A stretch of DNA of 64,000 nucleotides from Gammaproteobacteria bacterium (GTDB lineage: Bacteria > Pseudomonadota > Gammaproteobacteria > SZUA-152): positions 2,650 through 66,649 of the forward strand of contig JAKISS010000001.1 of the NCBI GenBank assembly GCA_021648485.1. The letters are read 5' to 3'. The translations under genes and the position numbers were made by a program. The notes beneath the pieces were generated by a model, which saw nothing but the letters and a program-made list of their open reading frames with translations, did no database searches and was not told where the DNA came from. This document shows positions 22,217 to 39,723 of the stretch, one piece after another (position 1 is the first letter of the stretch; each line of letters starts with the position of its first letter).

Positions 22217-22245
22217 ATATGGTGATGAAGGAAAAGGTGACTGCA

Positions 22246-23184: not shown

Positions 23185-23262
23185 AGGGTGATGGGTGCAA
23201 TGTGCTGATGCCACATTTAAACACCTGAATTTCAAATGCACAGGTATATGAGGACGTTAACG

Positions 23263-24327
23263 ATGAAAAATATACTGATACGTTTATCAATCTTCACGTT
23301 ATTGTTTCCCTTTGTCACAATTGCACAGCCGTTGTTGTATGTCCCCACAGGTAACACGAATGATGTTGTGATTATTGATCTCAGTACAGACAAAATTATT
23401 GGGCGAATTGATGAGCTGGAAAATGCTCATGGCCTGTCGAGCAGTCGTTACACTGAATATCTGGTTGCAGGCAGTATGCAGGCACCGGGTACAAAAAAAT
23501 CCGCTGCAGCCAAACCCGCGAAAATGAGTGAAGCTGAACATGCGGAACATCATGCGAATACCAAAAGCAAGGCTGAGAAAACGGCTACACCAAGTTATGT
23601 TTCCATTATTCATGCCAAGCATGGGCACGTCATGCGTCGTGTCGAAGTAGGTGCGCTGACACATCATACGGCCGTATCACCGGATGGGAAAATCGCGATT
23701 GCCGTACATTCCGGGGCGGGCGATATTTCTGTTATCGATCTCGATAAAATGAATGTTATCAAAATATTGCAAACCGGAACATGGCCTAATTATGCAGTGT
23801 TTAGCAGCGACGGAAATTTTCTTTATATCACAAATGCCGGCATGGATATGGTCAGTGAAATTAATACCCGGACATGGCAGGTCACACGGGAAATAAACGT
23901 TGGTAAAGCACCGGAGCACATGGTGATCAGTACTGATAATAAATTTCTTTATGTTGCCAATAAGACTGGCGGGTCTGTTTCTGTTGTCAATTTAACGGAT
24001 GGAAATGTGACAAAAACTTGGCCAGTGGGTGAAAAAATACACGGCATAGATTTGTCGGACGATGGCCGTTGGTTGTTTGTGGCCAGTAAAGGTACTGACA
24101 CGTTAAGCCGGATTAATCTTTCCAACGGAAAAGTTTCTACAATTGATTTGTTACCTTCACCGTACCATGTTGCATATATTACCGGACTGAACAAACTTTA
24201 TGTTTCCAGTCGGAAAATACCCAAAATCTGGGTGCTTAACCCGCAAACTCTGCACGTCGAGAATGAAATTGACTTGGGTAAGGGGGTAGCACATCAGATG
24301 GTTATTCGTTCAAACAACAACAAATAG
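23263..24327 (+). CDS. secreted YVTN-type beta-propeller repeat protein
   Basis: Signal peptide 'MKNILIRLSIFTLLFPFVTIAQP'. Repeated ~40-aa units ('LYV.N...V.VI.L', 'FLYITNAG', 'FLYVANK', 'LFVASKG', 'LYVSS'). One loop is His-rich ('EAEHAEHHANTK'). Confidence 0.7.
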   Translation: MKNILIRLSIFTLLFPFVTIAQPLLYVPTGNTNDVVIIDLSTDKIIGRIDELENAHGLSSSRYTEYLVAGSMQAPGTKKSAAAKPAKMSEAEHAEHHANTKSKAEKTATPSYVSIIHAKHGHVMRRVEVGALTHHTAVSPDGKIAIAVHSGAGDISVIDLDKMNVIKILQTGTWPNYAVFSSDGNFLYITNAGMDMVSEINTRTWQVTREINVGKAPEHMVISTDNKFLYVANKTGGSVSVVNLTDGNVTKTWPVGEKIHGIDLSDDGRWLFVASKGTDTLSRINLSNGKVSTIDLLPSPYHVAYITGLNKLYVSSRKIPKIWVLNPQTLHVENEIDLGKGVAHQMVIRSNNNK

Positions 24328-24349
24328 GACAACAAAATAGGAGTCACCT

Positions 24350-24772
24350 ATGTTTACAGTGAGTGAATTGGCAAAGCGAACCGATGTCACACCGGATACG
24401 GTGCGTCATTATGTACATATTGGCATGCTGAAGCCTGAGCGTAATCCTCATAACGGTTATAAATTATTTAGTGGTGAGGACGTTACCAAGCTGCGCTTCA
24501 TTCGTCAGGCGCAGAGTCTAGGGTTCACTCTGGCAGAAATTGGTGAAATTCTTAATCATTCCATGGCAGGAGGGTCTCCCTGTCCCCAGGTGCGTGAGCT
24601 GATGCAACGCCGGGTTGTTGAAAATAAAATCAAACTGGATGCGTTGAATGCCTTACAAAAACGCATGGAAGAAGCCTTGTTACTTTGGGAAAACATACCC
24701 AATGGACAGCCTGATGGCGACTCGGTTTGTCATTTGATTGAATCGGTCACTTTATTGAATCCAAAAGCTTGA
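24350..24772 (+). CDS. MerR-family metal-responsive transcriptional regulator
   Basis: N-terminal wHTH 'FTVSELAKRTDVTPDTVRHYVHIGML', a dimerisation helix, and candidate metal ligands 'GGSPCP' and 'DSVCHLIE'. Confidence 0.85.
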   Translation: MFTVSELAKRTDVTPDTVRHYVHIGMLKPERNPHNGYKLFSGEDVTKLRFIRQAQSLGFTLAEIGEILNHSMAGGSPCPQVRELMQRRVVENKIKLDALNALQKRMEEALLLWENIPNGQPDGDSVCHLIESVTLLNPKA

Positions 24773-24800
24773 CCTATTAGCTGCGCATAGGTTTTACACT
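24769..24800 (+). promoter_or_regulatory. MerR-type promoter/operator (TTGACC-20 bp-TACACT with dyad ACCTAT-N9-ATAGGT)
   Basis: The -35 box overlaps the merR-like stop codon. The 20-bp spacer is over-long, as in MerR-family activated promoters, and the dyad is centred in it. It lies 56 bp upstream of the Met-rich gene. Confidence 0.6.
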
Positions 24801-24855
24801 TGCCAGTAGAAAACAAATAAACGGTTGTTTGTTTCCAAACAGAGATTAAAGGAGA

Positions 24856-25281
24856 TTGATCATGAAATTCACAATGAAACCGGTTTTAGGCACATCTGTT
24901 TTGCTGATTGCATTGTTGGCAACCCCTCTGTTGTATGCAGGAGAACAGCATGCCAAAGGCATGAACGGCATGTCCGGGCAGCACAGTAAGCAAATGATGA
25001 ACATGGATAAGATGCAAGGCCAAATGAGTGAGATGTCGAAAATGATGGAAGAGGCCCATGCGACAAAAGACATGGATAAACGTCACGAGATGATGCGTAA
25101 ACACATGAAAAAAATGCAAGACGTGATGGGTAATATGAAGGGCATGATGAGCGACAATATGTCGGGTACCATGAATATGGAACAACATCAGAAAATGATG
25201 TCAACACGTATGGACATGATGCAGGGCATGATGGAGCAGATGCTCAAACAGCAATCCATGATGATGGATACAAAGAAATAA
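24856..25281 (+). CDS. secreted methionine-rich protein (candidate periplasmic Cu(I)/Ag(I) binder)
   Basis: SD 'AAAGGAG', a signal peptide, then ~112 aa containing 33 Met (counted) plus several His. No Cys in the mature part. Confidence 0.7.
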   Translation: MIMKFTMKPVLGTSVLLIALLATPLLYAGEQHAKGMNGMSGQHSKQMMNMDKMQGQMSEMSKMMEEAHATKDMDKRHEMMRKHMKKMQDVMGNMKGMMSDNMSGTMNMEQHQKMMSTRMDMMQGMMEQMLKQQSMMMDTKK

Positions 25282-25344
25282 TTGCTTTGTTATGGTGATG
25301 TTTACCCGTTTATAACAATAAAAGCAGGCAGCAGGAGTGAGACA

Positions 25345-27918
25345 ATGACCAAGGATCCAGTATGTGGAATGGATGTCGCCGAAACATCCGGGCATCACTC
25401 AGAATATGAAGGAGATACCTACTATTTTTGCAGTGAGAGTTGTCAACACAAGTTTGAGGATACTCCTGCTTCATATGTGAAAAACAGCCAGCTTAAGGAT
25501 CCGGTGTGTGGCATGGATGTTACCACTGACTCTGATTTCCATACAAAGCATGAAGGTGAAAATTATTATTTCTGTAGCGAAAACTGCCAGCACACGTTTG
25601 GAAAAAATCCACAACAGTATTTACACAATCAGGAAAGCAATGCTTGCAGTCATGAACACAAGAGCGATACCCGCCAGCAGCCTGTCGATGAATCTGCGAT
25701 TTATACGTGCCCTATGCATCCTGAGGTTGAGCAGCAAGGGCCGGGGGCCTGTCCCAAATGCGGTATGGCACTGGAGCCCAAGAATGTACCTTTGACCGCT
25801 ACCAAAACGAAATATACCTGCCCTATGCATCCGGAGATTGTTCAGGATCAGCCTGGCAGTTGTCCCAAGTGTGGTATGGCACTGGAAGCCGTTACTGTAG
25901 AAGCAGAAGAAGATACCAGTGAACTGGAGTACATGAGCAAACGTTTCTGGGTCAGTGCTGTATTGGCCCTTCCTGTGTTATTCAGTGCCATGGCGGCTGA
26001 ATTCTGGCCTGAAGGCATGGCAGAATTGATTGACCCCAGTTTGCGGCAATGGTTGGAAATGATTGTGTCAGCACCGGTCATTATCTGGGGTGGCTGGATA
26101 TTTTATGTGCGCGCTATCCAGTCTGTGATCACACGTAACCTGAACATGTTTACCCTTATCGGACTCGGTGTCTCGGTTGCCTTTACGTATAGTGTCATTG
26201 CCACTGTGGCTCCCGGTATCTTTCCGGCGGCGGTCTTTAACGACGTTGGTGTTGTGCCGGTTTATTTTGAAGCCGCAGCCGTTATCACTGCCTTGATACT
26301 GCTGGGGCAGGTGCTGGAATTGCGGGCACGCAGTCAAACCAATGCGGCCATCAAATTGCTGTTAGGCCTGGCACCCAAAACTGCACGCATCGTACGTGAG
26401 GATGGTACTGAAGAAGATATTCCCATGGAACACGTACAAGTCGGCGATGTTCTGCGGGTACGCCCGGGTGAAAAGGTACCGGTGGACGGTACCGTGATTG
26501 AAGGTGAGAGCAACGTTGATGAGTCCATGGTCACTGGTGAACCGCTGCCGGTAGGAAAAAACAAAGGCGAACGTCTCATTGGTGCTACGGTTAATGGTAC
26601 CGGTGGTCTGTTAATGCGGGCTGAAAAGGTAGGCGCTGATACATTGTTATCACAAATTGTACAGATGGTAGCCGATGCCCAGCGTTCACGGGCACCCATT
26701 CAAAGACTGGTTGATCTTGTTGCAGGCTACTTTGTGCCTGTAGTGGTGGTGATCGCTATTATTACCTTCATCGTCTGGAGTTTGTGGGGGCCGGAGCCAG
26801 CAATCGCTTATGCCGTAATTAATGCAGTGGCGGTGTTGATTATCGCCTGTCCCTGCGCGTTGGGTTTGGCAACCCCCATGTCCATTATGGTAGGTACCGG
26901 CAAAGGCGCGATGATGGGTGTACTGTTTAAAAATGCCGAAGCACTGGAGGTCTTGCGCAAGGTGGATACTCTGGTGGTGGACAAAACCGGCACGCTCACC
27001 GAAGGCAAGCCAAAACTGGTGGCGGTAACATCTGTTGGTGATTTTTCTGAAGACGATGCCTTGCGCCTGATTGCCAGCCTGGAACGTGCCAGTGAACATC
27101 CCTTGGCCGAGGCCATTGTACAGGGGGCAGAAGAACGCAAACTGGTCTTGGTAAAAGCCGATAACTTCCAGTCAATCACCGGCAAAGGGGTAACAGGTGA
27201 TGTGGATGGACACAGTGTGGCCATGGGTAACATCAAATTGCTGGAAGACCTTGGTATTGATGCGGGCGACTTGCCTCAACAGGCCGATACACAACGGGCT
27301 GAAGGTCAGACAGTCATGTTCTTTGCCATCGATGGTAAAGCCGCCGGGTTGATTGGTGTTGCCGACCCCATCAAGGAAACCACGCCCGAAGCGATTCGCG
27401 ACTTGCATGCCGCCGGTATCAAAGTCGTTATGCTCACTGGCGACAGTCGTAAAACGGCTGAAGCAGTGGCTGCGAAACTGGATATTGACCAGGTACAGGC
27501 CGAGGTATTGCCGGATCAGAAAGCTGCCGTTGTCAAGCAGCTTCAGGATGAAGGACGTATTGTCGCCATGGCAGGTGATGGCATTAATGATGCCCCTGCC
27601 CTGGCACAGGCCCATGTCGGTATCGCCATGGGAACGGGTACTGATGTTGCCATGGAAAGTGCTGGGGTGACGCTGGTGAAAGGTGATTTACGCGGCATTG
27701 TGCGAGCACGGCGCTTGTCTCAGGCCACCATGCGCAATATTCGCCAAAACCTGTTCTTTGCCTTCATCTATAATTCGTTAGGCGTACCGGTTGCGGCGGG
27801 GCTGCTCTATCCCTTCTTTGGTATTTTATTATCACCGATCATTGCCGCAGCGGCCATGAGTTTCAGTTCGGTGTCGGTGATCATGAATGCCCTGCGACTG
27901 AAGAACTTGCGCCTATAA
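25345..27918 (+). CDS. copper-translocating P1B-type ATPase (CopA-type) with 2x YHS + 2x 'CPMHP..CPKCG' N-terminal modules
   Basis: Motifs 'CPC' ([12 protein letters not shown]), 'DKTGTLT', 'GDGINDAP' and 'TGES-like TGEP'. The N-terminus has two 'DPVCGMDV...YYFCSE.CQH.F' and two 'YTCPMHPE...CPKCGMALE' modules. SD 'AGGAG' precedes the ATG at 25345. Confidence 0.95.
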
Positions 27919-27999
27919 AGCAGATGCAGAAAGAAGAACCTTGTACATTTTGGCAGAAAAGTCAGACCTTCAGAAGCCACTAAAAACGAGGAGCTTAAA

Positions 28000-28671
28000 A
28001 TGCATAGTGTTGGGTATGCATATGGTATGTGGGTGGTGGTCGCGTTTAACGTTGGCCTGTTCCTCTTTTTTACTCTGAGCTTTCTGAAACCACGGGGCAG
28101 CCAGGAGTGGCGCAGTATGAGCGTGGTGACGGCCTTTTTTGTCGCCCTGTTTGCCGAAATGTACGGCTTTCCGTTAACGATTTATTTACTGACCGGCTGG
28201 CTAGGTGATGCCTATCCTGCACTGGAGCCCTTCAGCCATAAACTGGGACATCTGTGGGTCGTGGTGCTTGGCGGATCAACGCTGGCCTGGGCAGTGGTGA
28301 TGGCTCTGAGTCTGGTATTGATGCTCATGGGCTACACGCTGCTGTCAAAAGGCTGGACACAAATCCATGCTGCTCGTGGCGGTCTGGTGACCGATGGTAT
28401 TTATACCTATGCCCGCCATCCACAATACACCGGACTCTTTCTGGTGATCATCGGCTTTTTGGTGCAGTGGCCCACGATACTTACCGTAATAATGGCACCC
28501 GTTCTATTGTTTGCTTATGTCCATCTGGCCAGAGTGGAAGAGCGGCGAGCCGAGGTGGAGTTCGGTGTAGAGTACGACGAATACGTCCGTAAAACACCGG
28601 CCTTTTTTCCACCTCTGAATCAGTGGAAAGCATTTTTAACAGTGAACGTTCCGGATGAAGAAACATCGTAA
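28000..28671 (+). CDS. isoprenylcysteine carboxyl methyltransferase (ICMT/PEMT)-family membrane methyltransferase
   Basis: Polytopic membrane protein with the family hallmark 'GIYTYARHPQYTGLFLVIIG' and a downstream 'EE..L...FG..Y..Y' region. Confidence 0.75.
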   Translation: MHSVGYAYGMWVVVAFNVGLFLFFTLSFLKPRGSQEWRSMSVVTAFFVALFAEMYGFPLTIYLLTGWLGDAYPALEPFSHKLGHLWVVVLGGSTLAWAVVMALSLVLMLMGYTLLSKGWTQIHAARGGLVTDGIYTYARHPQYTGLFLVIIGFLVQWPTILTVIMAPVLLFAYVHLARVEERRAEVEFGVEYDEYVRKTPAFFPPLNQWKAFLTVNVPDEETS

Positions 28672-28696
28672 TTATTATTAGAACAGGAGGTGACAT

Positions 28697-29023
28697 ATGG
28701 AAGGCCTGGGTTCGTTTTTACTGTTTGCGGCGTTTTTTTATTTCATGATGCGCTTCGGCTGTGGTTCACACATGACACACGGGCAGGGTGGTCACGATCA
28801 TTCCAAAGGTAATGCTTCTGGTCACGATGATGGCGCAGGAAAATATATTGATCCCGTTTGTGGTATGGAAGTTGAAACCGAGCAAGGCTACGGAAAGATG
28901 TACCAGGGCATGCTCTATCGTTTTTGTTCCAGGAACTGTCTGGACAAATTTGACAATGAGCCAGAGCGTTATATCAATAAACAGCAGGCTCTCGTGATGG
29001 AGGAAAAAAACAATGACCACTAA
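28697..29023 (+). CDS. membrane-anchored His-rich YHS-domain protein
   Basis: N-terminal TM helix, a His-rich linker 'HMTHGQGGHDHSKGNASGHDD', then the YHS module 'DPVCGMEV...YRFCSRNCLDKF'. Confidence 0.8.
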   Translation: MEGLGSFLLFAAFFYFMMRFGCGSHMTHGQGGHDHSKGNASGHDDGAGKYIDPVCGMEVETEQGYGKMYQGMLYRFCSRNCLDKFDNEPERYINKQQALVMEEKNNDH

Positions 29024-29315
29024 TACAATGACAAACCGTTATCAACAACAGGGGATTTCATTATTAGGTGTAGGGCATGCGACCAGCTTGTTGCTGGCGA
29101 TCAGTTTTGCACTGTGTGTCAGTTTTGATTTGCTTTTTCCTGAACATGCCATGTACAAAACCTGGCAACAACTGTTACCCGGTTTTGAATGGCTAAGCTG
29201 GAAAAGTTTTTTCCTGGGATTGATCGAAGCTTATGGTTATGGCTGGTTTTTCGCATTGATCTGGGTTCCTATCTATAATTTTGTTACGCTGCGAGGTAGG
29301 CAAGAAAAAAATTGA
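29013..29315 (+). CDS. small two-TM membrane protein, unknown function
   Basis: 100 aa with two hydrophobic helices. Overlaps the upstream gene by 11 nt and the downstream one by 4 nt, consistent with translational coupling. Confidence 0.6.
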   Translation: MTTNTMTNRYQQQGISLLGVGHATSLLLAISFALCVSFDLLFPEHAMYKTWQQLLPGFEWLSWKSFFLGLIEAYGYGWFFALIWVPIYNFVTLRGRQEKN

Positions 29316-29332
29316 GTTATCAGGGAGGCAAT

Positions 29333-30121
29333 ATGTCACCGGGATATCGTAAAAATAACAAGGTAAAAAGAAACAGGCGCACAACTATCTGGCATCATTT
29401 TCTTGATGCGCACCCGGAGTATTTAGCACGACATTATTGGTGGGCCTATTTATGGCGGTTTGGAGTATGGTTTTTTGATCATCAACCTATCATCAATGCC
29501 ATTCTGTTCGGGCAGTATCAAACCCTTAAAAAGCAGGCATTGCAAGCTTGCATGACAAACCGGCCAAAAGGCCGTCTGTTACAGTTGACCTGTGTGTATG
29601 GGAGTCTTACACCTTCATTGATCAAATCAATGAAAAAAGATGAAGATCTTTACCTGATGGATGTTGCCGACGTACAACTGGATGCAACACGCAAAAAGCT
29701 CAACAATAAAGAAAAAAGTCGATTGCTGGCGACACGTATGAATGCGGAACATCTCGCTTATTGCGACGATGCATTTTCCACTATTCTGATGTTCTTTCTG
29801 TTACATGAATTACCCGCTGATGCACGGGAACGCACGCTTAATGAAACGCTACGGGTGTTGCAACCTGGTGGCCGCCTTGTGGTTACTGAATATGGTCAAT
29901 ATCCTCGCCAGCATTTTTTATGCCGGTTTTGGCCGATACGTATTTTATTATTAGGTTTGGAACCTTTTTTGGGCGATTTTTGGCACAGGAATCTGTTTGC
30001 CATGTTACGCCGTCATGCAAAGACGCATAACAAAACACTCAAACGGGTAAATGAGTTTCACTGTTTCTCCAATTTTTACCGGGTATGTGTGTTTGAGGTA
30101 AATAGCCCGGATGATGAATAA
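29333..30121 (+). CDS. class I SAM-dependent methyltransferase
   Basis: Motifs 'LLQLTCVYGS' (motif I region), 'LMDVADVQL', 'FSTILMFFLLHELP' and 'LQPGGRLVVTEY'. ATG at 29333 with SD 'AGGGAGG' (the track start is a TTG at 29312). Confidence 0.7.
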   Translation: MSPGYRKNNKVKRNRRTTIWHHFLDAHPEYLARHYWWAYLWRFGVWFFDHQPIINAILFGQYQTLKKQALQACMTNRPKGRLLQLTCVYGSLTPSLIKSMKKDEDLYLMDVADVQLDATRKKLNNKEKSRLLATRMNAEHLAYCDDAFSTILMFFLLHELPADARERTLNETLRVLQPGGRLVVTEYGQYPRQHFLCRFWPIRILLLGLEPFLGDFWHRNLFAMLRRHAKTHNKTLKRVNEFHCFSNFYRVCVFEVNSPDDE

Positions 30122-31097
30122 AAGTATGATGAATCAAAACCATGTCGGTAATACCGTTGCAAAGTACCCGCGAATGGGGGTGCTATTAAGCTCAGGAGGA
30201 GGGCGCGGTGTTTATGCACATACGGGGTTTCTCTCAGCTCTGGAAACATTAAAGCTGCCCATTACCGCACTCGCAGGTTGCAGCGCAGGGGCATTGGTTG
30301 GAGGAATAGTGGCCAGCGGTACTTCTTTGCCGGATTGGGTTGCTGCACTTAACACAGTGCAGCGAAAAGAATTCTGGAGGCCAGCCTCTTTACCCGGCTT
30401 ACTCTGGTGTATGTTTCGTGACAAAGGGCGTGGTATTACCGGTATTTCAGATACCAAATGGGCGATAGAGTTTTGTCAGAAAAACCTTCATGTAAAAACG
30501 TTTGAAGAATGTCAGTTTCCTTTTTATGCCTTGGCCATTGACCTGGACAGCGGGGAAAAAACCATATTTTCAGAAGGCGAACTGGCCCCCCGTATTATGG
30601 CGAGTGCAGCAATTCCTATCGTCTATCAACCGGTACATATTGACGACAAATATTTTTGTGACGGAGCCGTGGTGGATTTTGCACCCACGGATGCAATCTG
30701 TTGTTTACATAACCTGGATGTGGTTATTGTGCATCATGTATCACAGCGTTTTGATAAAAATAAAAGTATTGATCACGCACGGACTGAACCGTGGACGTTG
30801 CTAAAAATCACGGATCGTCTGCTTTATCGAAATCGTCCATGGTACTTATCGGATGAAGGCGCATCCTCACAGCAAATTTCATCACAACGCTGTCCCTGTG
30901 GCTGTGGTGCGATAATCATTGTCATCGAACCTGAATTGCCCGAATTGACCTGGCCAATGACCAAAGGAGGTGCTCAGGTATTGTATGAAGCGGAACAGCA
31001 AACGATAGATTTACTGACACCGTATCAAGCGGCCCTGCAAACTGATCCACGGGGAATGTTTCCAAAAAATATCAAAGCATGTGATAACAGTGACTGA
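30111..31097 (+). CDS. patatin-like phospholipase
   Basis: Oxyanion 'SSGGGRG', the nucleophile elbow 'GCSAG' (GxSxG), and the catalytic Asp motif 'DGAVVD'. Overlaps the upstream gene by 11 nt. Confidence 0.85.
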   Translation: MMNKSMMNQNHVGNTVAKYPRMGVLLSSGGGRGVYAHTGFLSALETLKLPITALAGCSAGALVGGIVASGTSLPDWVAALNTVQRKEFWRPASLPGLLWCMFRDKGRGITGISDTKWAIEFCQKNLHVKTFEECQFPFYALAIDLDSGEKTIFSEGELAPRIMASAAIPIVYQPVHIDDKYFCDGAVVDFAPTDAICCLHNLDVVIVHHVSQRFDKNKSIDHARTEPWTLLKITDRLLYRNRPWYLSDEGASSQQISSQRCPCGCGAIIIVIEPELPELTWPMTKGGAQVLYEAEQQTIDLLTPYQAALQTDPRGMFPKNIKACDNSD

Positions 31098-31117
31098 AAC
31101 AAGAGGTTTTTGTAGAA

Positions 31118-31801
31118 ATGAATGATCAATATGTATGGCTTTTATGGTCAAGTGCTTTTTTGGTACCATGGATAATCATTTATATCAGCTTCCCGGCACA
31201 CCGGCGTGCCATGCTATGGGCAAGCCTGTTCACCATGCCCTTTGGTTTGAGTGAACCATTATTTGTACCGGAATACTGGAGTCCTCCCAGCCTGTTTGAT
31301 CTGGCTTTACGCACAGGCTTTGATATTGAAAGTTTGATTTTTTGTTTTGGTATTGGCGGCATCGCGGCGGTGATGTATAACCTCCTGACGCGCCGGGTTC
31401 CTGTTAGGATACCGACAAATGAACGTAAGCAACCTTTGCATCGTCATCATTACAAGGCGATGGCAGCTCCTTTTGTTGTTTTTATTCCATTATATTTTCT
31501 ACCATGGAATCCTATTTATCCCTCTATTGTTGCCATGATCGTTGGTGCAGTTGCCAACATTCTTTGCCGCCCGGATTTAAAATGGAAAACATGGATTGGG
31601 GGGCTGCTGTTTCTGGTTTATTACGCACTGTTTCTCGTCGGGCTGGAATGGTCTGCACCGGGTTATATTGATCGCGTCTGGAACTTATCGGCACTAAGCG
31701 GTATCAATATTGCATTTATGCCCCTGGAAGAACTGCTTTTTGCCATTGCTTTTGGTATGTACTGGGCAGGTGTTTATGAACATATCACATGGCGAAAATG
31801 A
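31118..31801 (+). CDS. polytopic membrane protein, lycopene-cyclase-domain-like
   Basis: Seven or so hydrophobic segments. 'MPLEELLFAIAF' resembles the PxEE..F motif of CrtYc/d-type lycopene cyclase domains. The assignment is from memory and unverified. Confidence 0.4.
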   Translation: MNDQYVWLLWSSAFLVPWIIIYISFPAHRRAMLWASLFTMPFGLSEPLFVPEYWSPPSLFDLALRTGFDIESLIFCFGIGGIAAVMYNLLTRRVPVRIPTNERKQPLHRHHYKAMAAPFVVFIPLYFLPWNPIYPSIVAMIVGAVANILCRPDLKWKTWIGGLLFLVYYALFLVGLEWSAPGYIDRVWNLSALSGINIAFMPLEELLFAIAFGMYWAGVYEHITWRK

Positions 31802-31822
31802 CATGCGAACAGGAGATAGATA

Positions 31823-32599
31823 ATGAGCGAACAGCACACAATGGAAGCTTGTCCCGCCACCCGCCCGCGCCGGTTTTATGATTGTACGCTCAATGAAAAA
31901 CTGCTTTATACCTCATTTTTATTGTTAGCGGGATTAGCCTATCTGATGGCATTGGGCTATCTTTATTCCAGTTTTCAAGGTATCGATGGTAAGCCGGGGC
32001 TATCCGTGGAAGATATCGCTGAGAATTATTATGGTAACCGCAGTGGTACGCGACTGGAATCTGCATTGCGTGGGCCCATGGCCAGTTACATTGATGTTGA
32101 ACAACGTCACCACATTGTTGAATGGCTGAAGTCAGGTGCGCCGGAAAGTGGTTATGACAGCAAAATCCGTCCCATTCTTGCTGAACGCTGTTTTGGTTGC
32201 CATAGCGCTGCTTCGGGTTTACCGGTTCCTGATTTTACCCGCTACGCAGGCATTAAACCCGTTGCCAACGTGGATACCGGAGTTTCTCTGCACAGTTTGA
32301 TGAAAGTTTCACATATCCATTTATTTGGCATCGGTCTGGTAGCCCTGGGTATTGGTCTTATTTTCCGTTTTACTTTTCTGCCATCCTGGCTTCAACACAC
32401 GCTAACGTTAGCGCCATTTATTGCTATTTTTACTGATATCCTGGCCTGGTTTTTCACTAAATGGGACCCGCACTATGCGTATATCGTTGTTATCGCCGGT
32501 GCTGTTCTGGGTTTAGCCTGGGCGGCGCAGATCAGTATCTCTTTGTACCAGATCTGGTTTTTAAAATGTCGCGTGACACCGGGACATAATCGACCTTGA
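31823..32599 (+). CDS. membrane protein with a single CxxCH motif in a soluble loop
   Basis: One N-terminal TM helix, then a ~110-aa soluble segment with 'ILAERCFGCHSAASGLPVPDF' (nt 32189-32203), then three C-terminal TM helices. Confidence 0.6.
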   Translation: MSEQHTMEACPATRPRRFYDCTLNEKLLYTSFLLLAGLAYLMALGYLYSSFQGIDGKPGLSVEDIAENYYGNRSGTRLESALRGPMASYIDVEQRHHIVEWLKSGAPESGYDSKIRPILAERCFGCHSAASGLPVPDFTRYAGIKPVANVDTGVSLHSLMKVSHIHLFGIGLVALGIGLIFRFTFLPSWLQHTLTLAPFIAIFTDILAWFFTKWDPHYAYIVVIAGAVLGLAWAAQISISLYQIWFLKCRVTPGHNRP

Positions 32600-32713
32600 C
32601 CTGTGGTCAGCACGCACATCATACACTTTATTCATCCTTGGTATAACGATTGCCTGGACTGGTGGATTTGACGTTAACGCAGACCAGAGCCGCTTTTCGG
32701 TGAGGAGTTTTCG

Positions 32714-33460
32714 ATGCTGATTAAGACGAAAAAAAATTGTCTGTGGTGCGATAAGCCAATCACTAATGGGGTACACACCACTGACAATAACGATGTCTTT
32801 TGTTGTGAGGGATGTTATCTCGGATACATGGCGCATCAGCGTTTTCAGCACGAGCGTGATGAAATTCAGTTATCACTGGTTGAGGCGTTGGCAGCAGCAC
32901 TGGATGCCCGCGAACATGAAACGGGAATGCACTCACAGCGCGTCGCATGCCATACCCAGGTATTGGCACGGCAATTCAGTAAAGACAAAAGTGTGCTTCA
33001 GCAGATCTACTGGGGTTCACTGTTACACGATATCGGTAAAATCGCTATTCCTGATTTTATTTTATTAAACCCTCATGCACTGAATGACGATGAATGGAAG
33101 ATTATGCGTAGCCATTCACAACGTGGATACGATATTATCAGTGATATTCCATTCATGAGTGAAGCGGCAAATATCGTGTTATGTCACGAGGAGCGCTGGG
33201 ATGGGGGTGGTTATCCGCAGGGTTTGAAAGGGAAAGCCATTCCATGGGGTGCAAGATTGTTTGCTATTATTGATACACTGGATGCCATTACCTCGGATCG
33301 TCCCTACAGGAAAGCACAATCTTTTGATGCGGCCAAAAAGGAAATCATCAACATGAGTGGTCAGCAATTTGATCCGGAGGGCGTGGAAGCCTTTCTGGCC
33401 GAAGAAGATATTTTACGCGGGATGGTGGAGGTGAAATGCACGCTGGTGACAGAGCGCTAA
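32714..33460 (+). CDS. HD-GYP domain protein (c-di-GMP phosphodiesterase type) with N-terminal Cys-rich metal-binding module
   Basis: 'HSQRV', 'LLHDIGKIAIP' and 'HEERWDGGGYPQGL' (HD-GYP). The N-terminal 'CLWCDKPI...VFCCEGCYLGY' matches the CxxC...CCxxC pattern found at the N-termini of some cation ATPases. Confidence 0.85.
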   Translation: MLIKTKKNCLWCDKPITNGVHTTDNNDVFCCEGCYLGYMAHQRFQHERDEIQLSLVEALAAALDAREHETGMHSQRVACHTQVLARQFSKDKSVLQQIYWGSLLHDIGKIAIPDFILLNPHALNDDEWKIMRSHSQRGYDIISDIPFMSEAANIVLCHEERWDGGGYPQGLKGKAIPWGARLFAIIDTLDAITSDRPYRKAQSFDAAKKEIINMSGQQFDPEGVEAFLAEEDILRGMVEVKCTLVTER

Positions 33461-33580
33461 TAATGCGCAACGATGGTTTTTGTGCGGTGAACGCGAGCAA
33501 CTTATGCTGAATACAGGTGGATGGCCAAGATTAACATCAGGTTTGCCACCCGCCTGCAACAAACAGGAAAACCGGCTTAT

Positions 33581-33979
33581 ATGTTGAAAACACATTATTT
33601 CATTTTAGCGGCTGTGCTGAGTTTGTTTTTGGCAGGCTGTGACAGCCTGGACCCGGAAGAAATACGCAAGCGTCAACATTTCCCCGGGAAGGATTTTGTC
33701 GCTGATGCTCAACAGGGGGAGACGCTGTTTGTGGCGAATTGTTCACAGTGTCACGGCCCGGCAGGGCAGGGGACACGGCAGGGACCACCACTGGTGGACA
33801 AAATATACCGCCCTGCACATCACGCCGATATTACCTTTCACTGGGCCGTAAAAAACGGTGTCAAACACCACCACTGGGGATTCGGCGACATGCCGCCCAT
33901 CAAGAATGTTTCTCCCGAGGATGTCGGTCATATTATCGCCTATATCCGCCAACAACAGCGTAATGCGGGTATTCAGTAA
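33581..33979 (+). CDS. lipoprotein c-type cytochrome (class I), paralog of 41883-42284
   Basis: Lipobox 'LFLAGC' and the heme motif 'CSQCHGPAGQG'. It shares 'GPPL...Y.P.HHAD.TF..AV..GV..HHW.FGDMPP' with the other copy. Confidence 0.8.
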   Translation: MLKTHYFILAAVLSLFLAGCDSLDPEEIRKRQHFPGKDFVADAQQGETLFVANCSQCHGPAGQGTRQGPPLVDKIYRPAHHADITFHWAVKNGVKHHHWGFGDMPPIKNVSPEDVGHIIAYIRQQQRNAGIQ

Positions 33980-34019
33980 TCATTGAATCGCCCTGTATGC
34001 CGGGTGTTTTTGTCAGCTT

Positions 34020-34823
34020 ATGAATATCATAAACTGGGTTAACCGCCTGCGTGTTCGTCACACACTGACGCAATATCCCATTCCCTATGAATTGTGGGAA
34101 ACTGTGATTAACAGAGCCAGCCTGCTACATGACCTGAGTGCCACAGAGGAAGCCGGTTTGCGCGAACTGGCGACGCTGTTTCTTCATCAGAAGACAATTA
34201 CCGGCGCACAAGGCTTGCTGGTCAGCGACGAAATGAAAGTGATTATTGCCGCTCAGGCAGTGCTTCTGGTGCTGGAGCTTGGGCTGGATTATTACAATGG
34301 ATGGGTTGAGATTATTCTTTACCCAAGTGCCTTTCGGGTCAATCATGGAGATGTTGATCAAAATGGGCTGGTGTCCAGTGACTCACATAATCTCAGCGGA
34401 GAATCCTGGTTGCGCGGGCCGGTGATTCTTTCCTGGGAAGATATCGAGTACGAACTGCATACGCCTCACTCAGGGTATAACGTTGTTGTGCATGAGTTTG
34501 CACATAAACTGGATATGCTGAACGGGCGCGCCAATGGTATGCCACCACTCCATCCCCGTATGGAAATCGATCAGTGGACACGCGCACTCAGTGGTGCATT
34601 CGAAATATTGCAACAGCAAGTCGCGCATCAGCACCCAACACGGATTAATGCTTATGCGGCTACAACGCCTGCTGAATATTTTGCGGTAGTCAGCGAATAC
34701 TTTTTCACTGCACCGGATGTGCTCGGGAAACACTGCCCGGATGTATATTTGCAGTTAACACAATTTTACCGTCAGAATCCTGCTTCACGCCGAGAGCACA
34801 AAATGACAGAAAATGCCCGGTAA
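34020..34823 (+). CDS. mtfA: MtfA-family zinc peptidase (M90, Mlc titration factor A-like)
   Basis: 267 aa. The HExxH motif 'VVHEFAHKLD' sits in the expected position, and 'EYFAVVSEYFF' is typical of MtfA/DUF980. Confidence 0.8.
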   Translation: MNIINWVNRLRVRHTLTQYPIPYELWETVINRASLLHDLSATEEAGLRELATLFLHQKTITGAQGLLVSDEMKVIIAAQAVLLVLELGLDYYNGWVEIILYPSAFRVNHGDVDQNGLVSSDSHNLSGESWLRGPVILSWEDIEYELHTPHSGYNVVVHEFAHKLDMLNGRANGMPPLHPRMEIDQWTRALSGAFEILQQQVAHQHPTRINAYAATTPAEYFAVVSEYFFTAPDVLGKHCPDVYLQLTQFYRQNPASRREHKMTENAR

Positions 34824-35159: not shown

Positions 35160-36824
35160 TTATACACGTCCTGAACGTGATATGCCTCGCAACAGACGAA
35201 AAGTCACCCATAACGCCAGGGTGTAACCACCCAGGGCAATCAGTGGCATACCGGCAATCACTGGTTTTAATTCACTCTGTGCCAACAATGATGACGCAAT
35301 ATAAAGCCCCAGCGCAACCAGTGCCAGAGCTATCCGATTACTGCTGCGATCAACATGGTTTTCAAAATCGCGTAATCCACGATGATGAAGCGGTATTTCG
35401 AATTTTCCTGAGCGCGACCGCCGGAGAAATCTCGCCAGTGCCTTGGGTAATTCCTGGGCAAATACGGATGCTTCGTATTTGAGACGCGCTGAACTTGATC
35501 CCCCTGCTGACTCTTTAAGCGCTGTTGTCATCAGTGTTGCCCCCTTGCTTTGCCAATAATCAGCCATGTTAAATTGCGGGTCCAGACTGCGCAGGGTGGA
35601 TTCCATGATTAACAGGGCGCGCATGATTAACAGTAAATGGTAAGGCATACGCAGGTTGAACCCCCAGCCCATGCGTGCTGCACTCAGCATGGCTGTTGCC
35701 AGTGACCATTCCTGTAATGACACGCTGGCATATTCCTGAATAAGCTCGTTCATTCCTCGTTGTACCTGTTGGCGATCAATTTCTTCGCCCAATAGTCCGA
35801 GGTCGAGGTAGCTATCGAGCAGCCATTCACTGTCCTGATTAATCAATGCCAGAAAAAAGCCGGCCAGTTTTCGGCGTGTGGTGATATCGATGAGTCCCAC
35901 CATGCCAAAATCATGAAAACAAATTTTCCCGTTGTCCATGATAAAGAGATTGCCGGGGTGTGGGTCGGCATGAATGCAACCCATGACAAAAAACTGATGC
36001 AGATAAGCATCTGCAAAATTGATGGCCAGTTGCGGCCCGTCTTTTTGCACGGAAGGGTCGGTGACCAGCCGACCACCGCTCATTTCTTGAACCATCACTG
36101 ACTCGGTGCAAAGTTCCGGAATGGCGGCCGGGATGTGAATCGTTGATGAATCTTTGAAGGCTTCACGAAAACGGTGCGTATTGCGCATCTCCTGACGAAA
36201 ATCCATTTCCTTCATCAGGGTAAGGCCGTTTTCACGTACGATTTCCGGTAGAGAATATTTTTGCAGCTGAGGTGCCAGCGCCAATACAACCCGTAACACC
36301 AGTTTGAGCAGGCGTATATCCTGTGTCACCTGGTTACGCAGATCTGGTCGTCGCACCTTGATGATGACCTTGCGTCCATCCGGCAATATTGCTTTGTGTA
36401 CCTGTGCAATGGATGCTGCTGCCAGGGGAGTGTCGTCAAATTCGGCAAACAGGTTTTCGATAGAATCCCCCAGTGCCTGTTCGATTTCCCGCCGGGCTAT
36501 TTTACTGTCGAAAGCCTGTACGTGATCTTGCAGGTTTTGCAAGGCCTCTACGTAATCATTCGGCAGAATATCCTGACGCAGACTCAGGCCTTGCCCCAGT
36601 TTGACGAATGTTGTTCCCAGTTTTTCCAGCACTTTGCTCAAGCGTTGTGCCGGGCTGATAGCGGGATGTAAAAGATGGCTGTACACCAGTCCCAGCCAAA
36701 CGATGTGGCTACCGATTGCCCAATAAATTTGTATCAGTCTTCGCAAGGTACCCATAGCGTGTTTTGTTTGTCCTGTTTGGTGATCCCGGCCAGTTTTTTG
36801 TCGAATTTTTATTAAGCCTATCAC
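35160..36824 (-). CDS. ABC1/UbiB-family atypical kinase
   Basis: 'AAASIAQVHKA', 'VIIKVRRP', 'HADPHPGNLF' and 'FHDFGMVG' are kinase-like motifs, and there are C-terminal TM helices. The true start may be the internal Met at ~36755. Confidence 0.85.
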   Translation of the reverse strand: MIGLIKIRQKTGRDHQTGQTKHAMGTLRRLIQIYWAIGSHIVWLGLVYSHLLHPAISPAQRLSKVLEKLGTTFVKLGQGLSLRQDILPNDYVEALQNLQDHVQAFDSKIARREIEQALGDSIENLFAEFDDTPLAAASIAQVHKAILPDGRKVIIKVRRPDLRNQVTQDIRLLKLVLRVVLALAPQLQKYSLPEIVRENGLTLMKEMDFRQEMRNTHRFREAFKDSSTIHIPAAIPELCTESVMVQEMSGGRLVTDPSVQKDGPQLAINFADAYLHQFFVMGCIHADPHPGNLFIMDNGKICFHDFGMVGLIDITTRRKLAGFFLALINQDSEWLLDSYLDLGLLGEEIDRQQVQRGMNELIQEYASVSLQEWSLATAMLSAARMGWGFNLRMPYHLLLIMRALLIMESTLRSLDPQFNMADYWQSKGATLMTTALKESAGGSSSARLKYEASVFAQELPKALARFLRRSRSGKFEIPLHHRGLRDFENHVDRSSNRIALALVALGLYIASSLLAQSELKPVIAGMPLIALGGYTLALWVTFRLLRGISRSGRV

Positions 36825-37061: not shown

Positions 37062-37093
37062 TTGACCTGTAGGCTACATTCAGGTTTTACACT
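37062..37093 (+). promoter_or_regulatory. second, apparently orphan MerR-type promoter (TTGACC-20 bp-TACACT)
   Basis: 'CTTGACCTGTAGGCTACATTCAGGTTTTACACT' has the same hexamers, spacer length and flanks as the site at 24769-24800. It contains the dyads ACCTG...CAGGT and TGTAG-G-CTACA. Confidence 0.45.
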
Positions 37094-37257
37094 GTGAATG
37101 GTGTTATACAGGAGGGCGGATCACTGATGAATATTCTCAGTGACCATTAGGACAGTATGTCGGTATGTATGCTGCCTGGATTTAATTTTATATCGAGAGT
37201 AATCAGGAGACCGCAGGCAGCATAATACAAGCATATCGTATTGTCGAAGTGTGTTAG

Positions 37258-37374
37258 TTTCCGGTGATTAAAAAAGAAGGCGGTTACACGATTGATTACG
37301 AATATTGTAAAGGGTGTGGTATTTGCGCAGAGGAGTGCCCGTGCGGACATATTGATATGGAATCTGTGGTGTAA
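37258..37374 (+). pseudogene. C-terminal remnant of a 4Fe-4S ferredoxin-domain protein (PorD/2-oxoacid:ferredoxin oxidoreductase delta-like)
   Basis: The open frame reads '..[36 protein letters not shown]' with a canonical CxxCxxCxxxCP motif. It is preceded by an in-frame TAG and has no plausible full-length partner. Confidence 0.5.
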
Positions 37375-37441
37375 GGATGGTGGAGTTAAGGTGTTTATGA
37401 TTTTTTGTGTTCCACTCTCATTCAACATACGGCAAAACCGT

Positions 37442-37471
37442 AGGGTGGAACAAGCGCAGCGGTTCCACCAA
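37442..37471. repeat. 30-bp hairpin-forming repeat, copy 1
   Basis: AGGGTGGAACAAGCGCAGCGGTTCCACCAA. The internal stem is GGTGGAAC/GTTCCACC. Its exact reverse complement is at 37659-37688. Confidence 0.85.
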
Positions 37472-37658
37472 CAGGCTATTAAGGAACAACAAATCGCCTC
37501 TGTGCCACGACCGCTGACAAAAAAATCAAAACCCTGCACCAAAAAACCGATTGTCTGAAACAGGAGAAAAACTCTCTTATGTAACAACGACGCACCGGAA
37601 AATGGTGAGTCAAGGTGGACGTTGATAGTTGATCGAATCTTGAAGATGCCCGTAGCGT

Positions 37659-37688
37659 TTGGTGGAACCGCTGCGCTTGTTCCACCCT
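37659..37688. repeat. 30-bp hairpin-forming repeat, copy 2 (inverted)
   Basis: TTGGTGGAACCGCTGCGCTTGTTCCACCCT, the perfect reverse complement of 37442-37471. Confidence 0.85.
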
Positions 37689-37786
37689 GCCCAGGGTATA
37701 CCTTTAAGGGGAGAGAGTTGGGGTAAGGGGTGAATTGCACAGGGTAATGTGATGCTATTGGTCAGGAATTCAGAGGAGAAGAAATA

Positions 37787-37876
37787 ATGGAATGGTTAAT
37801 ACTTTTGTTGGTGGCTTGCTGTATTACCATGATCTTTTTTATGTGTGGCGGGCATGGGGAATCAGGTGATAAATGA
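37787..37876 (+). CDS. candidate 29-aa small membrane protein (below the ORF-track cut-off)
   Basis: ATG preceded by 'GAGGAG' at an 8-nt spacing. Encodes 'MEWLILLLVACCITMIFFMCGGHGESGDK'. The stop lies 31 nt before the oxidoreductase start. Confidence 0.35.
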   Translation: MEWLILLLVACCITMIFFMCGGHGESGDK

Positions 37877-37907
37877 TAAATATTCGTTCTGACTTCGGAA
37901 AAAAATA

Positions 37908-39056
37908 ATGACGGAAACAAAAATAAATCAGGAAACGCCTGTAGAAATCGCTGGTGCCGGTCCCGCCGGACTGGCAGCAGCAATCACTCTGGCCCATGCC
38001 GGGCGTCAGGTGATCGTACATGAAGCACATAAAAGAGTGGGGCATCGTTTTGGTGGTGACTTTCAGGGGCTGGAAAACTGGACAACTCAGAATGATGTGC
38101 TCAACGAATTTAAAGCACTTGGTTTGACGACAGACTTTACAGCCATGCCAGGTTGTAACGGGACGGCTTTTGATTCCGCCCGAAAATCCTATGAAATCAA
38201 AAGTGATGAACCTCTGTTTTATCTGATTGAGCGTGGCCCCGGTCCCGATACGCTTGATAGTGCCTTGTTAAAGCAGGCGCAATCGCTTGGTGTCGAGGTT
38301 CGTTTTAACAGTCGTCTGCGTCAAATGGCCGGTGAAGGCATTCTCGCCGCCGGGCCGCGTGCTGCTGATGCCATCGCCGTGGGCTATCACTTTGAGACCG
38401 ACATGACAGACGGTTATTGGGTTATCTGTGACGATGACCTGGCTCCTCAGGGTTATGCCTATCTCCTGGTAATGAAGGGCAGAGGCACGGTTAAAAGCTG
38501 CATGTTTTCCAGTTTTAAACAGGAGAAATGTTATGTGCAGCGAACGGTGGAAGCCTTTCAGGAGCTGGTTGGTCTGGAGATGAAAAATCCCCGGCCTCAT
38601 GGTGGCAGTGGTAATTTTCGTATTCCGCGTAGTGCTTATAGCGGCCCGCATCCCCTGGTGGGGGAACAGGCCGGTTTTCAGGATACGTTATGGGGGTTTG
38701 GTATGCGGCTGGCGATTTCATCCGGCGTACTGGCGGCAAGAAGTTTGTTGAATGATGAAAACTACGACATGCTCTGGCAGCATGAGCTGCGGCCGCAAAT
38801 GGAAACGTCAATTGTTAACCGCAGTCTGTTTTCATTGCTGGGAAATCGGGGTTACGGCTGGTTTCTGGGGAATCAGCTTGCCAGGCCGGATTTACGAGCA
38901 TCATTGCGACGGCAGTATCAGCCGTCCCTGATTAAGCGGTTACTTGGCCCGTGGGCCAGGCATCGTTATAGCAGCCGTCGAAAAGATATCACTTGTGATC
39001 ACATTGACTGTTACTGTGTCTGGTGTCGGGAAGAGTGTTGTGTACATGAGCAGTGA
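37908..39056 (+). CDS. FAD-dependent oxidoreductase (geranylgeranyl-reductase-like) with Cys-rich C-terminal tail
   Basis: Dinucleotide-binding 'VEIAGAGPAGLAAAITLAHAGRQVIVHE'. The C-terminal 'CDHIDCYCVWCREECCVHEQ' has 7 Cys in 20 aa. Confidence 0.8.
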   Translation: MTETKINQETPVEIAGAGPAGLAAAITLAHAGRQVIVHEAHKRVGHRFGGDFQGLENWTTQNDVLNEFKALGLTTDFTAMPGCNGTAFDSARKSYEIKSDEPLFYLIERGPGPDTLDSALLKQAQSLGVEVRFNSRLRQMAGEGILAAGPRAADAIAVGYHFETDMTDGYWVICDDDLAPQGYAYLLVMKGRGTVKSCMFSSFKQEKCYVQRTVEAFQELVGLEMKNPRPHGGSGNFRIPRSAYSGPHPLVGEQAGFQDTLWGFGMRLAISSGVLAARSLLNDENYDMLWQHELRPQMETSIVNRSLFSLLGNRGYGWFLGNQLARPDLRASLRRQYQPSLIKRLLGPWARHRYSSRRKDITCDHIDCYCVWCREECCVHEQ

Positions 39057-39682: not shown

Positions 39683-39723
39683 ATAGTGTGTCAGAGGGAA
39701 ATTAAAACAGAAGGAGAAACGAT

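Follow-up and report, generated by a model that had tools for sequence, protein, structure and literature searches.

In marine Gammaproteobacteria, Cusick et al. (2021, PMC8478169) catalogued a gene cluster composed of MerR, CopA, a cupredoxin, DUF2933, and an ICMT-family protein, which frequently lies on a genomic island or a plasmid. Rhodoquinone (RQ), the low-potential quinone made by RquA, is known for hypoxic metabolism (PMC9814641, PMC11707229), and, according to PMC9814641, a previous analysis failed to find any gene in genetic linkage with rquA. Here, we analyse a locus in which both kinds of genes are present. The window is a stretch of 64,000 nucleotides from contig JAKISS010000001.1 of a Tenderia/Thiogranum-like marine gammaproteobacterium, and the genes in question are eight open reading frames (ORFs) at 28000-33460, hereafter g1 to g8, that follow a copper P-type ATPase; the related loci to which they were compared carry L-numbers. 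We think it probable that the locus is a composite MerR/Cu(I)-ATPase operon, combining an accessory trio (g1-g3), a module of RquA (g4), an Aq_1264_TM family protein (g7), and a cytochrome, and a set of variable extra genes.

What the locus shares with the marine copA cluster is a MerR gene and a P1B-1 copper ATPase gene with, behind them on one strand, genes for small membrane proteins and for an ICMT-family methyltransferase. It differs in that no cupredoxin and no DUF2933 could be detected in the ORFs of the string, so that the five families do not occur in order, and in that the ICMT gene lies directly 3' of the ATPase and is followed by YHS, DUF5676, and five further genes missing from the Alteromonas cluster. 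We therefore regard the window as a variant and have not filed it as a member. Plasmid cassettes of the type YHS-DUF5676-(ICMT)-Cu-ATPase-ICMT (Burkholderia thailandensis p1, Halomonas KO116, and Roseobacter litoralis pRLO149_83) have the same three accessory families as the window, but another gene order, and they lack RquA, Aq_1264_TM, patatin, and HD-GYP. CzcN and NccN are long-known members of the czc and ncc determinants. These membrane-bound ICMT-family proteins of Cupriavidus metallidurans metal-resistance determinants can be likened to g1 by their Pfam family, although CzcN belongs to an RND (czc) determinant whereas g1 follows a P1B ATPase; czcN1 is up-regulated on copper exposure (PMC7563307). 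Compared with the RquA of R. rubrum and others, the rquA of the window differs by its copper-ATPase string and by a recurrent membrane partner with a haem motif.

Every part of the locus belongs to a known family, and the linkage of ICMT and ATPase is already published. The earlier note on this DNA knew of no described system with this composition. This holds for the combination, which we did not find in limited literature searches, but not for g1-g3, which are known accessories of the ATPase (PMC8478169). The same limited searches gave no paper that links rquA with a copper-ATPase string or with Aq_1264_TM, and those joining the lycopene cyclase domain with copper, or rhodoquinone with copper resistance, returned no such cluster in the titles or abstracts of the matches. 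A recurrent neighbourhood would give rhodoquinone biology a candidate regulatory input and the first candidate partners of RquA: a small cytochrome c, a CxxCH membrane protein, a geranylgeranyl-reductase-like (GG-reductase-like) flavoprotein, YHS proteins, and the MerR/Cu-ATPase. The setting is one of aerobic or microaerobic lithoautotrophs, relatives of Tenderia, whose "uphill" electron flow is poorly understood. The Aq_1264_TM family, with more than 1000 unannotated members, would gain a testable role in electron transfer, and for copper biology the comparison places the enigmatic ICMT, YHS, and DUF5676 accessory genes within a wider recombining gene set.

The copper ATPase, its promoter, and the accessory trio

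The related loci number 160 and come from two scans, one anchored on g7 in a genome collection (best 80 of 594 Aq_1264_TM loci) and one anchored on g4 in a metagenome collection (best 80 of 367 RquA loci). Every protein of the window was scored against these loci by tblastn, and the ORFs of the loci were clustered. We call "well-flanked" the 28 RquA-anchored metagenome loci that have at least 3 kb on each side.

ORF calls bear out the arrangement described in the earlier note, with eight co-directional genes on the + strand, at the same positions and with gaps of -11 to +114 nt, and the motifs that it quoted (RHPQYTG for the ICMT/PEMT methyltransferase, GCSAG/DGA, PLEELLF, CFGCH, CxxC..CCxxC, and HD...GYP) can all be read in the translations of g1-g8. 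From the ATPase stop onward, the gaps are 81, 25, -11, -4, -11, 20, 21, and 114 nt, and from g1 to g7 every gap is at most 25 nt or an overlap. The co-directional string on the + strand extends beyond these genes, from 20456 to 34823, in the order multicopper oxidase, CopB, YncE-like propeller, MerR, secreted Met-rich protein, ATPase, g1-g8, cytochrome c, and M90 peptidase.

The ATPase (25345..27918, +; Pfam E1-E2_ATPase) has an N-terminus with two YHS and two HMBD domains. Its ORF opens at TTG 25282, and the start is probably ATG 25345. The match to TIGR01511 (ATPase-IB1_Cu, 603.8 bits against a cut-off of 397) and the CPC, YN, and MSFSS (MxxSS) motifs mark it, on sequence grounds, as a P1B-1 pump that exports Cu(I). 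It is preceded by a gene for a MerR-family metal-responsive regulator (24350..24772, +; Pfam MerR_1 and MerR-DNA-bind) and, known from its translation, by one for a secreted Met-rich protein (24856..25281, +), presumably a periplasmic Cu(I) binder. The latter gene is kept in position in L002, L006, L010, L014, L015, L061, L093, L096, and L099. Between regulator and Met-rich gene lies a predicted MerR-type promoter (24769..24800, +; TTGACC-N20-TACACT), which has the 19-20 bp spacer between -35 and -10 of such promoters and, within it, a dyad operator (ACCTAT-N9-ATAGGT). Matches to TTGACC-N20-TACACT are over-represented in the window (5 against 0.2 expected), and five relatives (L006, L011, L014, L015, and L061) keep a promoter of the 24769 type 5' of their MerR or Met-rich gene. 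The dyad and this conservation indicate that the MerR-type promoter pointed out in the earlier note is real, and it could drive the whole string. A second such site (32596..32627, +), with a degenerate right half-site, is a candidate separate promoter of g8, and was not found before g8 in L006. A third exact site is found at 37062-37093 (+), with the dyad ACCTG...CAGGT and AGGTTTTACACT in common with the promoter at 24769; the following ~800 nt (37094-37907), up to the gene of an FAD protein, contain no convincing ORF on the + strand.

The earlier note saw no terminator in the 81-nt gap behind the ATPase. We found none there or up to 33979: the terminator scan gave no terminator-like site in any intergenic gap of 24772-33979, and folding of the gaps revealed nothing beyond shuffled controls. 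The first terminator-like site, at 33989-34006 and 3' of the cytochrome c gene, consists of a weak hairpin and a U-run. We propose read-through from the ATPase into g1-g7 because no terminator precedes 33989. The region has fewer sigma-70-like sites than shuffled controls, and its best one (29250-29279, +; TTCGCA-18-TATAAT, 10/12) lies inside the 3' end of g3, just 5' of rquA. Since the counts of both sigma-70-like sites and terminators are at or below the shuffled expectation, single sites carry little weight.

The accessory trio consists of a polytopic ICMT/PEMT-family membrane methyltransferase, a CzcN-like accessory gene (g1, 28000..28671, +; Pfam PEMT 2e-7, ICMT 3e-6), a His-rich YHS protein with a single transmembrane (TM) helix (g2, 28697..29023, +; Pfam YHS 2.2e-16), and a DUF5676 protein with two TM helices (g3, 29013..29315, +; Pfam DUF5676 1.2e-8). 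Plasmids of Methylophaga, Burkholderia thailandensis, Alteromonas, Roseobacter, and Halomonas, hosts that represent three classes of Pseudomonadota, carry these families around copper ATPases. Genes of the g1 type follow copper ATPases on the plasmids L001, L086, L088, L089, and L090, the YHS-DUF5676 pair with its overlapping stop and start recurs on plasmids and in 19 of the 80 g7-anchored loci, and g3 matches 38 plasmids of marine bacteria. In all four plasmid loci with a DUF5676-type gene that were inspected (L086, L088, L089, and L090), a Cu ATPase lies near that gene. A Lyc_cyc gene adjoins the trio on the B. thailandensis plasmid, and a YncE-family gene is close by on that of Halomonas. 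At the nucleotide level, megablast of the 9.7-kb region against plasmids gave a single 133-nt match, within a Lyc_cyc gene. A literature search for DUF5676 found no paper.

Together, the plasmid loci, the published cluster (PMC8478169), and CzcN/NccN make the ICMT gene behind a copper pump a known arrangement. The trio widely accompanies mobile MerR/Cu(I)-ATPase cassettes as a set of accessory genes, and its arrangement is already documented. Its products would presumably handle copper, or a component damaged by copper, at the inner membrane. We also noticed that YHS domains are scattered through the neighbourhoods of L017, L091, and L003, where some are fused to metabolic enzymes such as alpha-glucan phosphorylase or LDcluster4/LOG-like proteins (L017 5395-7323, L091 12539-13309, and L003 15967-16476). 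This hints at metal-gated metabolism.

RquA and a membrane protein with a haem c motif

The fourth gene (29333..30121, +) is, to judge from its sequence, rquA, encoding the SAM-dependent aminotransferase that makes low-potential RQ from ubiquinone. Its ORF opens at TTG 29312, with a probable start at ATG 29333. The protein matches Pfam Ubie_methyltran and the NCBIfam equivalog model of RquA, NF038261 (178.4 bits, cut-off 175; the alignment spans positions 2-215 of the 218 in the profile). It is 57% identical over 88% of its length to P0203 (ALP53758.1, Tel_11785) of Ca. Tenderia electrophaga and has every invariant residue of the Tenderia RquA; the NCBI name RquA is also borne by a member of the 90% cluster of a relative that is 98% identical to g4. 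When ALP53758.1 was expressed in E. coli, it yielded RQ8 with a mean signal of 19.2, against 1.2 for the vector (PMC11707229 Table S2), and 15 of the 16 sampled homologues of RquA were active (PMC11707229). The SAM-binding motif I of RquA departs from the consensus of class I methyltransferases while the other motifs are retained (PMC5953543), and g4 agrees with this: an atypical motif I, LQLTCVYG, replaces the GxGxG type and is invariant in g4 and 17 relatives, including the Tenderia RquA. RquA moves the amino group of SAM onto ubiquinone, in a Mn2+-dependent manner (PMC9814641). We considered that g4 could be a generic UbiE-type or class I methyltransferase and rejected this reading on account of the RquA equivalog match, the likeness to the Tenderia RquA, and the atypical motif I.

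These results changed part of what had been claimed in the earlier note. Profile searches upheld its domain calls for g1-g3, g5, g6, and g8, while the generic class I methyltransferase that it saw in g4 is RquA. One of the refuting conditions that it had itself set, a profile hit to an already characterised pathway, applies to g4, which belongs to rhodoquinone biosynthesis.

The validated RquA of Tenderia sits in the same kind of neighbourhood as g4. The complete Tenderia genome (L091) encodes, in order, a YHS/HMBD ATPase, PEMT, glucan phosphorylase, PilZ, YHS, and DUF5676, then cyclopropane-fatty-acid (CFA) synthase and POR genes, followed by RquA, an FAD-binding protein, YHS-LDcluster4, YHS, DUF5676, FtsH, and SPW/VKOR. 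The window counterpart of the FAD-binding protein is an FAD-dependent GG-reductase-like protein (37908..39056, +; Pfam FAD_binding_3 and a weak NCBIfam GG-reductase match) with the Cys-rich C-terminus CDHIDCYCVWCREECC. Its homologues lie at most ~1 kb 3' of RquA in several loci, including L091, and within 10 kb in 12 of the 28 well-flanked RquA loci. Here it is 4.4 kb past g8, but it is probably part of one functional neighbourhood with RquA. When g4 and g7 were searched by tblastn against 72,556 plasmids, neither gave a match, and we therefore do not count them as part of the mobile cassette.

The seventh gene (31823..32599, +) encodes a four-TM protein of the Aq_1264_TM family. The local copy of Pfam gave no hit for it, but PF27139 is present on all 120 matches listed among its more than 1000 homologues, and the best 120 are 65-98% identical. 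The loop between predicted TM1 and TM2, of ~100 residues and called periplasmic, bears an invariant CxxCH (C123, C126, and H127), and a SHIHLFG motif is invariant in the second helix. The CFGCH of g7 is, by its pattern, a CxxCH motif for the attachment of haem c and not a generic metal site, so that one of the three metal-binding modules counted in the earlier note falls away. The gene lies directly 3' of RquA in 9 genome loci and ~15 metagenome loci. Homologues from Zetaproteobacteria, Gallionellaceae, and Rhodanobacter have no copper neighbours and are found beside c-type cytochromes, HemN, or HemE, a setting seen in Fe-oxidisers, as well as MtrA/MtrB-like genes (identified by eye only). Given these copper-free neighbours, we read g7 as a predicted haem-linked electron-transfer protein. 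An exact look-up of the g7 sequence in public assemblies returned no record.

Two lineages show stable copper-free orders around this family: CCA-adding enzyme, Aq_1264_TM, monohaem cytochrome c, trihaem cytochrome c, and HemN in Zetaproteobacteria (L062-L085), and HemE, PriA, Aq_1264_TM, and FAD-linked oxidase in Gallionellaceae (L029-L052). Several public records name members of the family "elongation factor-1 alpha". This label looks like a propagated misannotation, since the family consists of four-TM proteins with a CxxCH.

The cytochrome of the module is a periplasmic monohaem cytochrome c (33521..33979, +; Pfam Cytochrome_CBB3 and Cytochrom_C), the last gene before the first terminator-like site. 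Genes of its type are found 3' of g7/g8 in L006, L094, L096, and L099, and a different small cytochrome c (family c2/d2) is found just 5' of RquA in more distant loci. A protein of ~400 residues (family d44, e.g., L109 8719-9912) stands between a small cytochrome c and RquA-Aq_1264_TM in L109, L112, and L115. It has an N-terminal CxxCH and a beta-barrel-looking remainder, and by eye it resembles the Cyc2-type fused cytochrome-porins, although no Pfam or NCBIfam model matches and we have dropped the Cyc2-like reading.

Recurrence of the neighbourhood and competing explanations

The complete order of eight genes with the upstream copper genes is found in close relatives only, on metagenome contigs with 82-93% identity. 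The order is unchanged in L093, and in L096 a CFA synthase is inserted before RquA. The closest genome relative, L006 (~89% DNA identity), is without patatin and propeller and has further indels between the genes. The eight genes are thus not the one conserved unit that had been supposed. At 59-80% identity, the loci have the order MerR, Met-rich, ATPase, PEMT, YHS, DUF5676, optionally CFA synthase/GDH, small cytochrome c, RquA, and Aq_1264_TM; here, RquA abuts g7 directly, and patatin, Lyc_cyc, and HD-GYP are sporadic. The 28 well-flanked RquA loci include the ATPase in 11 cases, PEMT in 12, YHS in 15, DUF5676 in 10, Aq_1264_TM in 8, GG-reductase-like proteins (homologues of window 37908-39056) in 12, patatin in 8, Lyc_cyc in 4, and HD-GYP in 3. 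A P1B ATPase lies within 10 kb in 19 of the 80 g7-anchored genome loci, in several gene orders and in lineages that comprise Acidiferrobacterales, Mariprofundus, Hyphococcus, and metagenome-assembled genomes (MAGs) of Thermodesulfobacteriota. The co-occurrence scans thus bear out the suggestion that a core subset travels together beside P1B ATPases.

The arrangement of this subset varies. The triple cytochrome c-RquA-Aq_1264_TM recurs among the compared loci. PEMT adjoins Aq_1264_TM in L003, L022, and L025, the ATPase does so in L033 and L072, RquA-PEMT-Aq_1264_TM is found in L136 and L141, and MerR-ATPase lies directly 3' of RquA in L145. The Thermodesulfobacteriota MAGs have DUF5676, PEMT, cytochrome c, and ATPase together, with Aq_1264_TM further along. 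Since the associations reappear in different orders in distant lineages, they amount to more than frozen synteny. The MAGs L016-L018, assigned to Thermodesulfobacteriota/Deltaproteobacteria, have g7 homologues with 66-71% identity, and their block suggests either a transfer between phyla or mis-binning.

In the composite operon that we favour, metal-loaded MerR would activate the long-spacer promoter at 24769, and transcription would run through the Met-rich protein and the ATPase into g1-g7, possibly as far as g8 and the cytochrome c gene. This would couple copper export to a change in the quinone pool, towards a low-potential quinone, and in the redox partners of that pool, with g4, g7, and the periplasmic cytochrome c plausibly forming a quinone-to-cytochrome electron-transfer module. 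A bolder version, which we put forward as rather unlikely, would have copper, or another metal sensed by MerR, control the quinone pool itself. Aq_1264_TM would be the haem c partner linking rhodoquinol to periplasmic cytochromes, and nearby prenyl-directed enzymes (the ICMT-like methyltransferase, the Lyc_cyc-domain protein, the GG-reductase-like flavoprotein, and a UbiB-like kinase) would tailor or service the quinone. If so, Tenderia-type lithoautotrophs growing on metal sulfides or electrodes would have a metal-regulated rewiring of electron transport, possibly for "uphill" electron flow.

Several results weigh against the composite operon and the roles given to its parts. The MerR protein is below every NCBIfam equivalog cut-off, with ZntR as the nearest model, and g4 exceeds the RquA cut-off by 3 bits only. 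Copper genes are missing altogether from about half of the RquA loci with 52-57% identity and from nearly all Aq_1264_TM loci below 60% identity, and GDH, CFA synthase, or POR genes part the ATPase block from RquA in many relatives. The loci are not phylogenetically independent, and many belong to a single clade of Gammaproteobacteria from hydrothermal or sediment settings. The sigma-70-like site at 29250-29279 or the second long-spacer site could give independent transcription. Finally, the AlphaFold2 model of g7, built with 25 homologues, is poor (mean predicted local distance difference test [pLDDT] 67.8), Foldseek against the PDB found nothing below E = 2.6, the PDB profile search gave nothing significant, and the Pfam cytochrome models gave no hit. 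Given this model and these empty searches, we offer no function for g7 based on its fold.

The strongest rival to the composite operon is mere adjacency. A respiratory module of RquA, Aq_1264_TM, and cytochrome c, transcribed from its own oxygen- or redox-responsive promoter, would just happen to lie beside a copper cassette in a hot spot of accessory genes. We hold this to be a serious possibility, if on balance unlikely. It would account for the triple standing alone, without copper genes within 10 kb upstream, as in L106, for RquA in unrelated contexts (L097, L098, and L114), and for the GDH and POR genes that intervene in relatives. It also fits the position of the best sigma-70-like site of the region just 5' of g4, the absence of g4 and g7 from plasmids, on which g1-g3 and g6 do occur, and the known place of RQ in hypoxic metabolism. 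However, adjacency alone does not predict that the families re-associate in varied orders in distant lineages (the eight loci from L003 to L145 named above), that 15 of the 28 RquA loci include YHS genes, or that the spacing of g1-g7 in the window is tight or overlapping. Hypoxia could also be the link between the two sets of genes: YHS, DUF5676, ATPase, ICMT, Lyc_cyc, and UbiB together with RquA would then form a stress island of a hypoxia or dormancy type. The B. thailandensis plasmid L086, where homologues of g1, g2, g3, and g6 occur, groups YHS, DUF5676, ATPase, ICMT, FtsH, acetate kinase, thiolase, phosphate acetyltransferase, a PHA-synthase-like hydrolase, Lyc_cyc, and SPW, and the Tenderia locus L091 and L003 add FtsH, SPW/VKOR, G6PD, glucan phosphorylase, and POR. 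We presume, from annotation and as a lead only, that L086 is akin to the lxa locus of Burkholderia cenocepacia. The latter includes acetate kinase, phosphate acetyltransferase, polyhydroxyalkanoate (PHA) synthase, a cation ATPase, and cytochromes (PMC3721108), and RQ serves low-oxygen respiration. Yet none of the hallmarks of lxa (universal stress proteins, acetate kinase, phosphate acetyltransferase, and PHA genes) is present among the profiled ORFs of the window, the flanks hold CusRS, a multicopper oxidase, CopB, two RND systems, and CDF, and the promoter is of the MerR and not of the FNR/Anr type, which makes this reading very unlikely.

The earlier note, for its part, had taken g1-g8 as one copper-triggered system that would methylate, deacylate, or cyclise a lipid of the envelope, with signalling by cyclic di-GMP. 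PEMT/ICMT, patatin, and Lyc_cyc are indeed enzymes of the membrane-lipid type, a CFA synthase (c31/d13) occupies the same place in L008, L015, L060, L091, and L096, and a single upstream MerR promoter with no terminator behind it would suit such a unit. Patatin homologues near RquA (8 of 28 loci) and the recurrence of the HD-GYP gene (5 of 80 g7-anchored and 4 RquA-anchored loci) point the same way. But g4 is a quinone aminotransferase and not a lipid methyltransferase, g7 and the cytochrome c speak for electron transfer, the closest relative does without patatin, Lyc_cyc and HD-GYP each occur in a small minority of related loci, and ICMT follows copper ATPases in many genomes from which all the other members are missing. 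A system for lipid remodelling is thus, in our view, improbable.

Variable genes and surroundings of the string

Three members of the string, g5, g6, and g8, are lineage-variable additions and its least conserved genes. The patatin-like phospholipase g5 (30111..31097, +; Pfam Patatin 4.9e-24, 86 bits against a cut-off of 27.7) has the GGGRG oxyanion motif, the GCSAG nucleophile, and the catalytic DGA. It is an indel that varies between lineages, absent in L006 and L094 and present in L093, L095, and L096. The homologues of ~50% identity in the 8 well-flanked RquA loci lie elsewhere, a few genes from RquA, and often in the order FAD protein, CBS protein, and patatin.

The polytopic protein g6 (31118..31801, +; Pfam Lycopene_cyc 4.5e-12) carries the PLEELLF motif, and its homologues are located in metal/ATPase islands on plasmids of Methylophaga, B. 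thailandensis, and Croceicoccus. The profiled ORFs of the window include no carotenoid genes. A role as carotenoid cyclase (CrtYc/Yd type) was rejected for want of a crtE/B/I context among these ORFs and given the metal/ATPase neighbours of the homologues, and we class g6 as domain-containing only. The last of the eight, g8 (32714..33460, +; Pfam HD_5 9.6e-36), has a Cys-rich N-terminus (CxxC..CCxxC) and an HD-GYP phosphodiesterase domain in which both motifs can be read. It has no receiver domain and may hydrolyse cyclic di-GMP. Its position differs in relatives, with homologues 5' of DUF5676 in L008, L060, L018, and L105.

The string is located within a metal-resistance region of ~40 kb, and its surroundings are a metal island: CusRS is divergent and upstream, and two RND efflux systems and a CDF transporter lie downstream. 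Rfam and tRNA scans of the window found nothing. The YncE-like beta-propeller with a His-rich insert (23236..24327, +; Pfam YNCE/Lactonase) is a recurrent yet dispensable neighbour of the cassette, found in L002, L093, L096, and the Halomonas plasmid L090 and missing from L006. Further downstream, an ABC1 kinase paralogue of the AarF/UbiB family, a family associated with quinone biosynthesis, is encoded on the opposite strand (35160..36824, -; Pfam ABC1). Its score with the UbiB model TIGR01982 is 335 bits, below the cut-off of 487. This paralogue is the only gene of ubiquinone-pathway type in the window, and an ABC1 kinase is also near the cluster in L003, L087, L093, and L136.

A paralogue of the MerR gene at 24350 is found at 39266-39685 (+), with an in-frame stop where the first MerR has a Gly before SPCP (...KHGKQG*SPCPTV...). 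Pseudogene formation, an error of sequencing, or recoding could each explain the stop. The paralogue is followed by a gene for a YHS protein of 164 residues (39724-40218). An element of ~175 nt is present in two inverted copies (39088-39262 and 41197-41371) that are 98% complementary and have perfect 19-bp terminal inverted repeats, CCTAAATTAATCAGTTAAA. The pair flanks a 1.9-kb segment with the MerR paralogue, the YHS protein, and a VTT/DedA gene, and looks like miniature inverted-repeat transposable elements (MITE-like).

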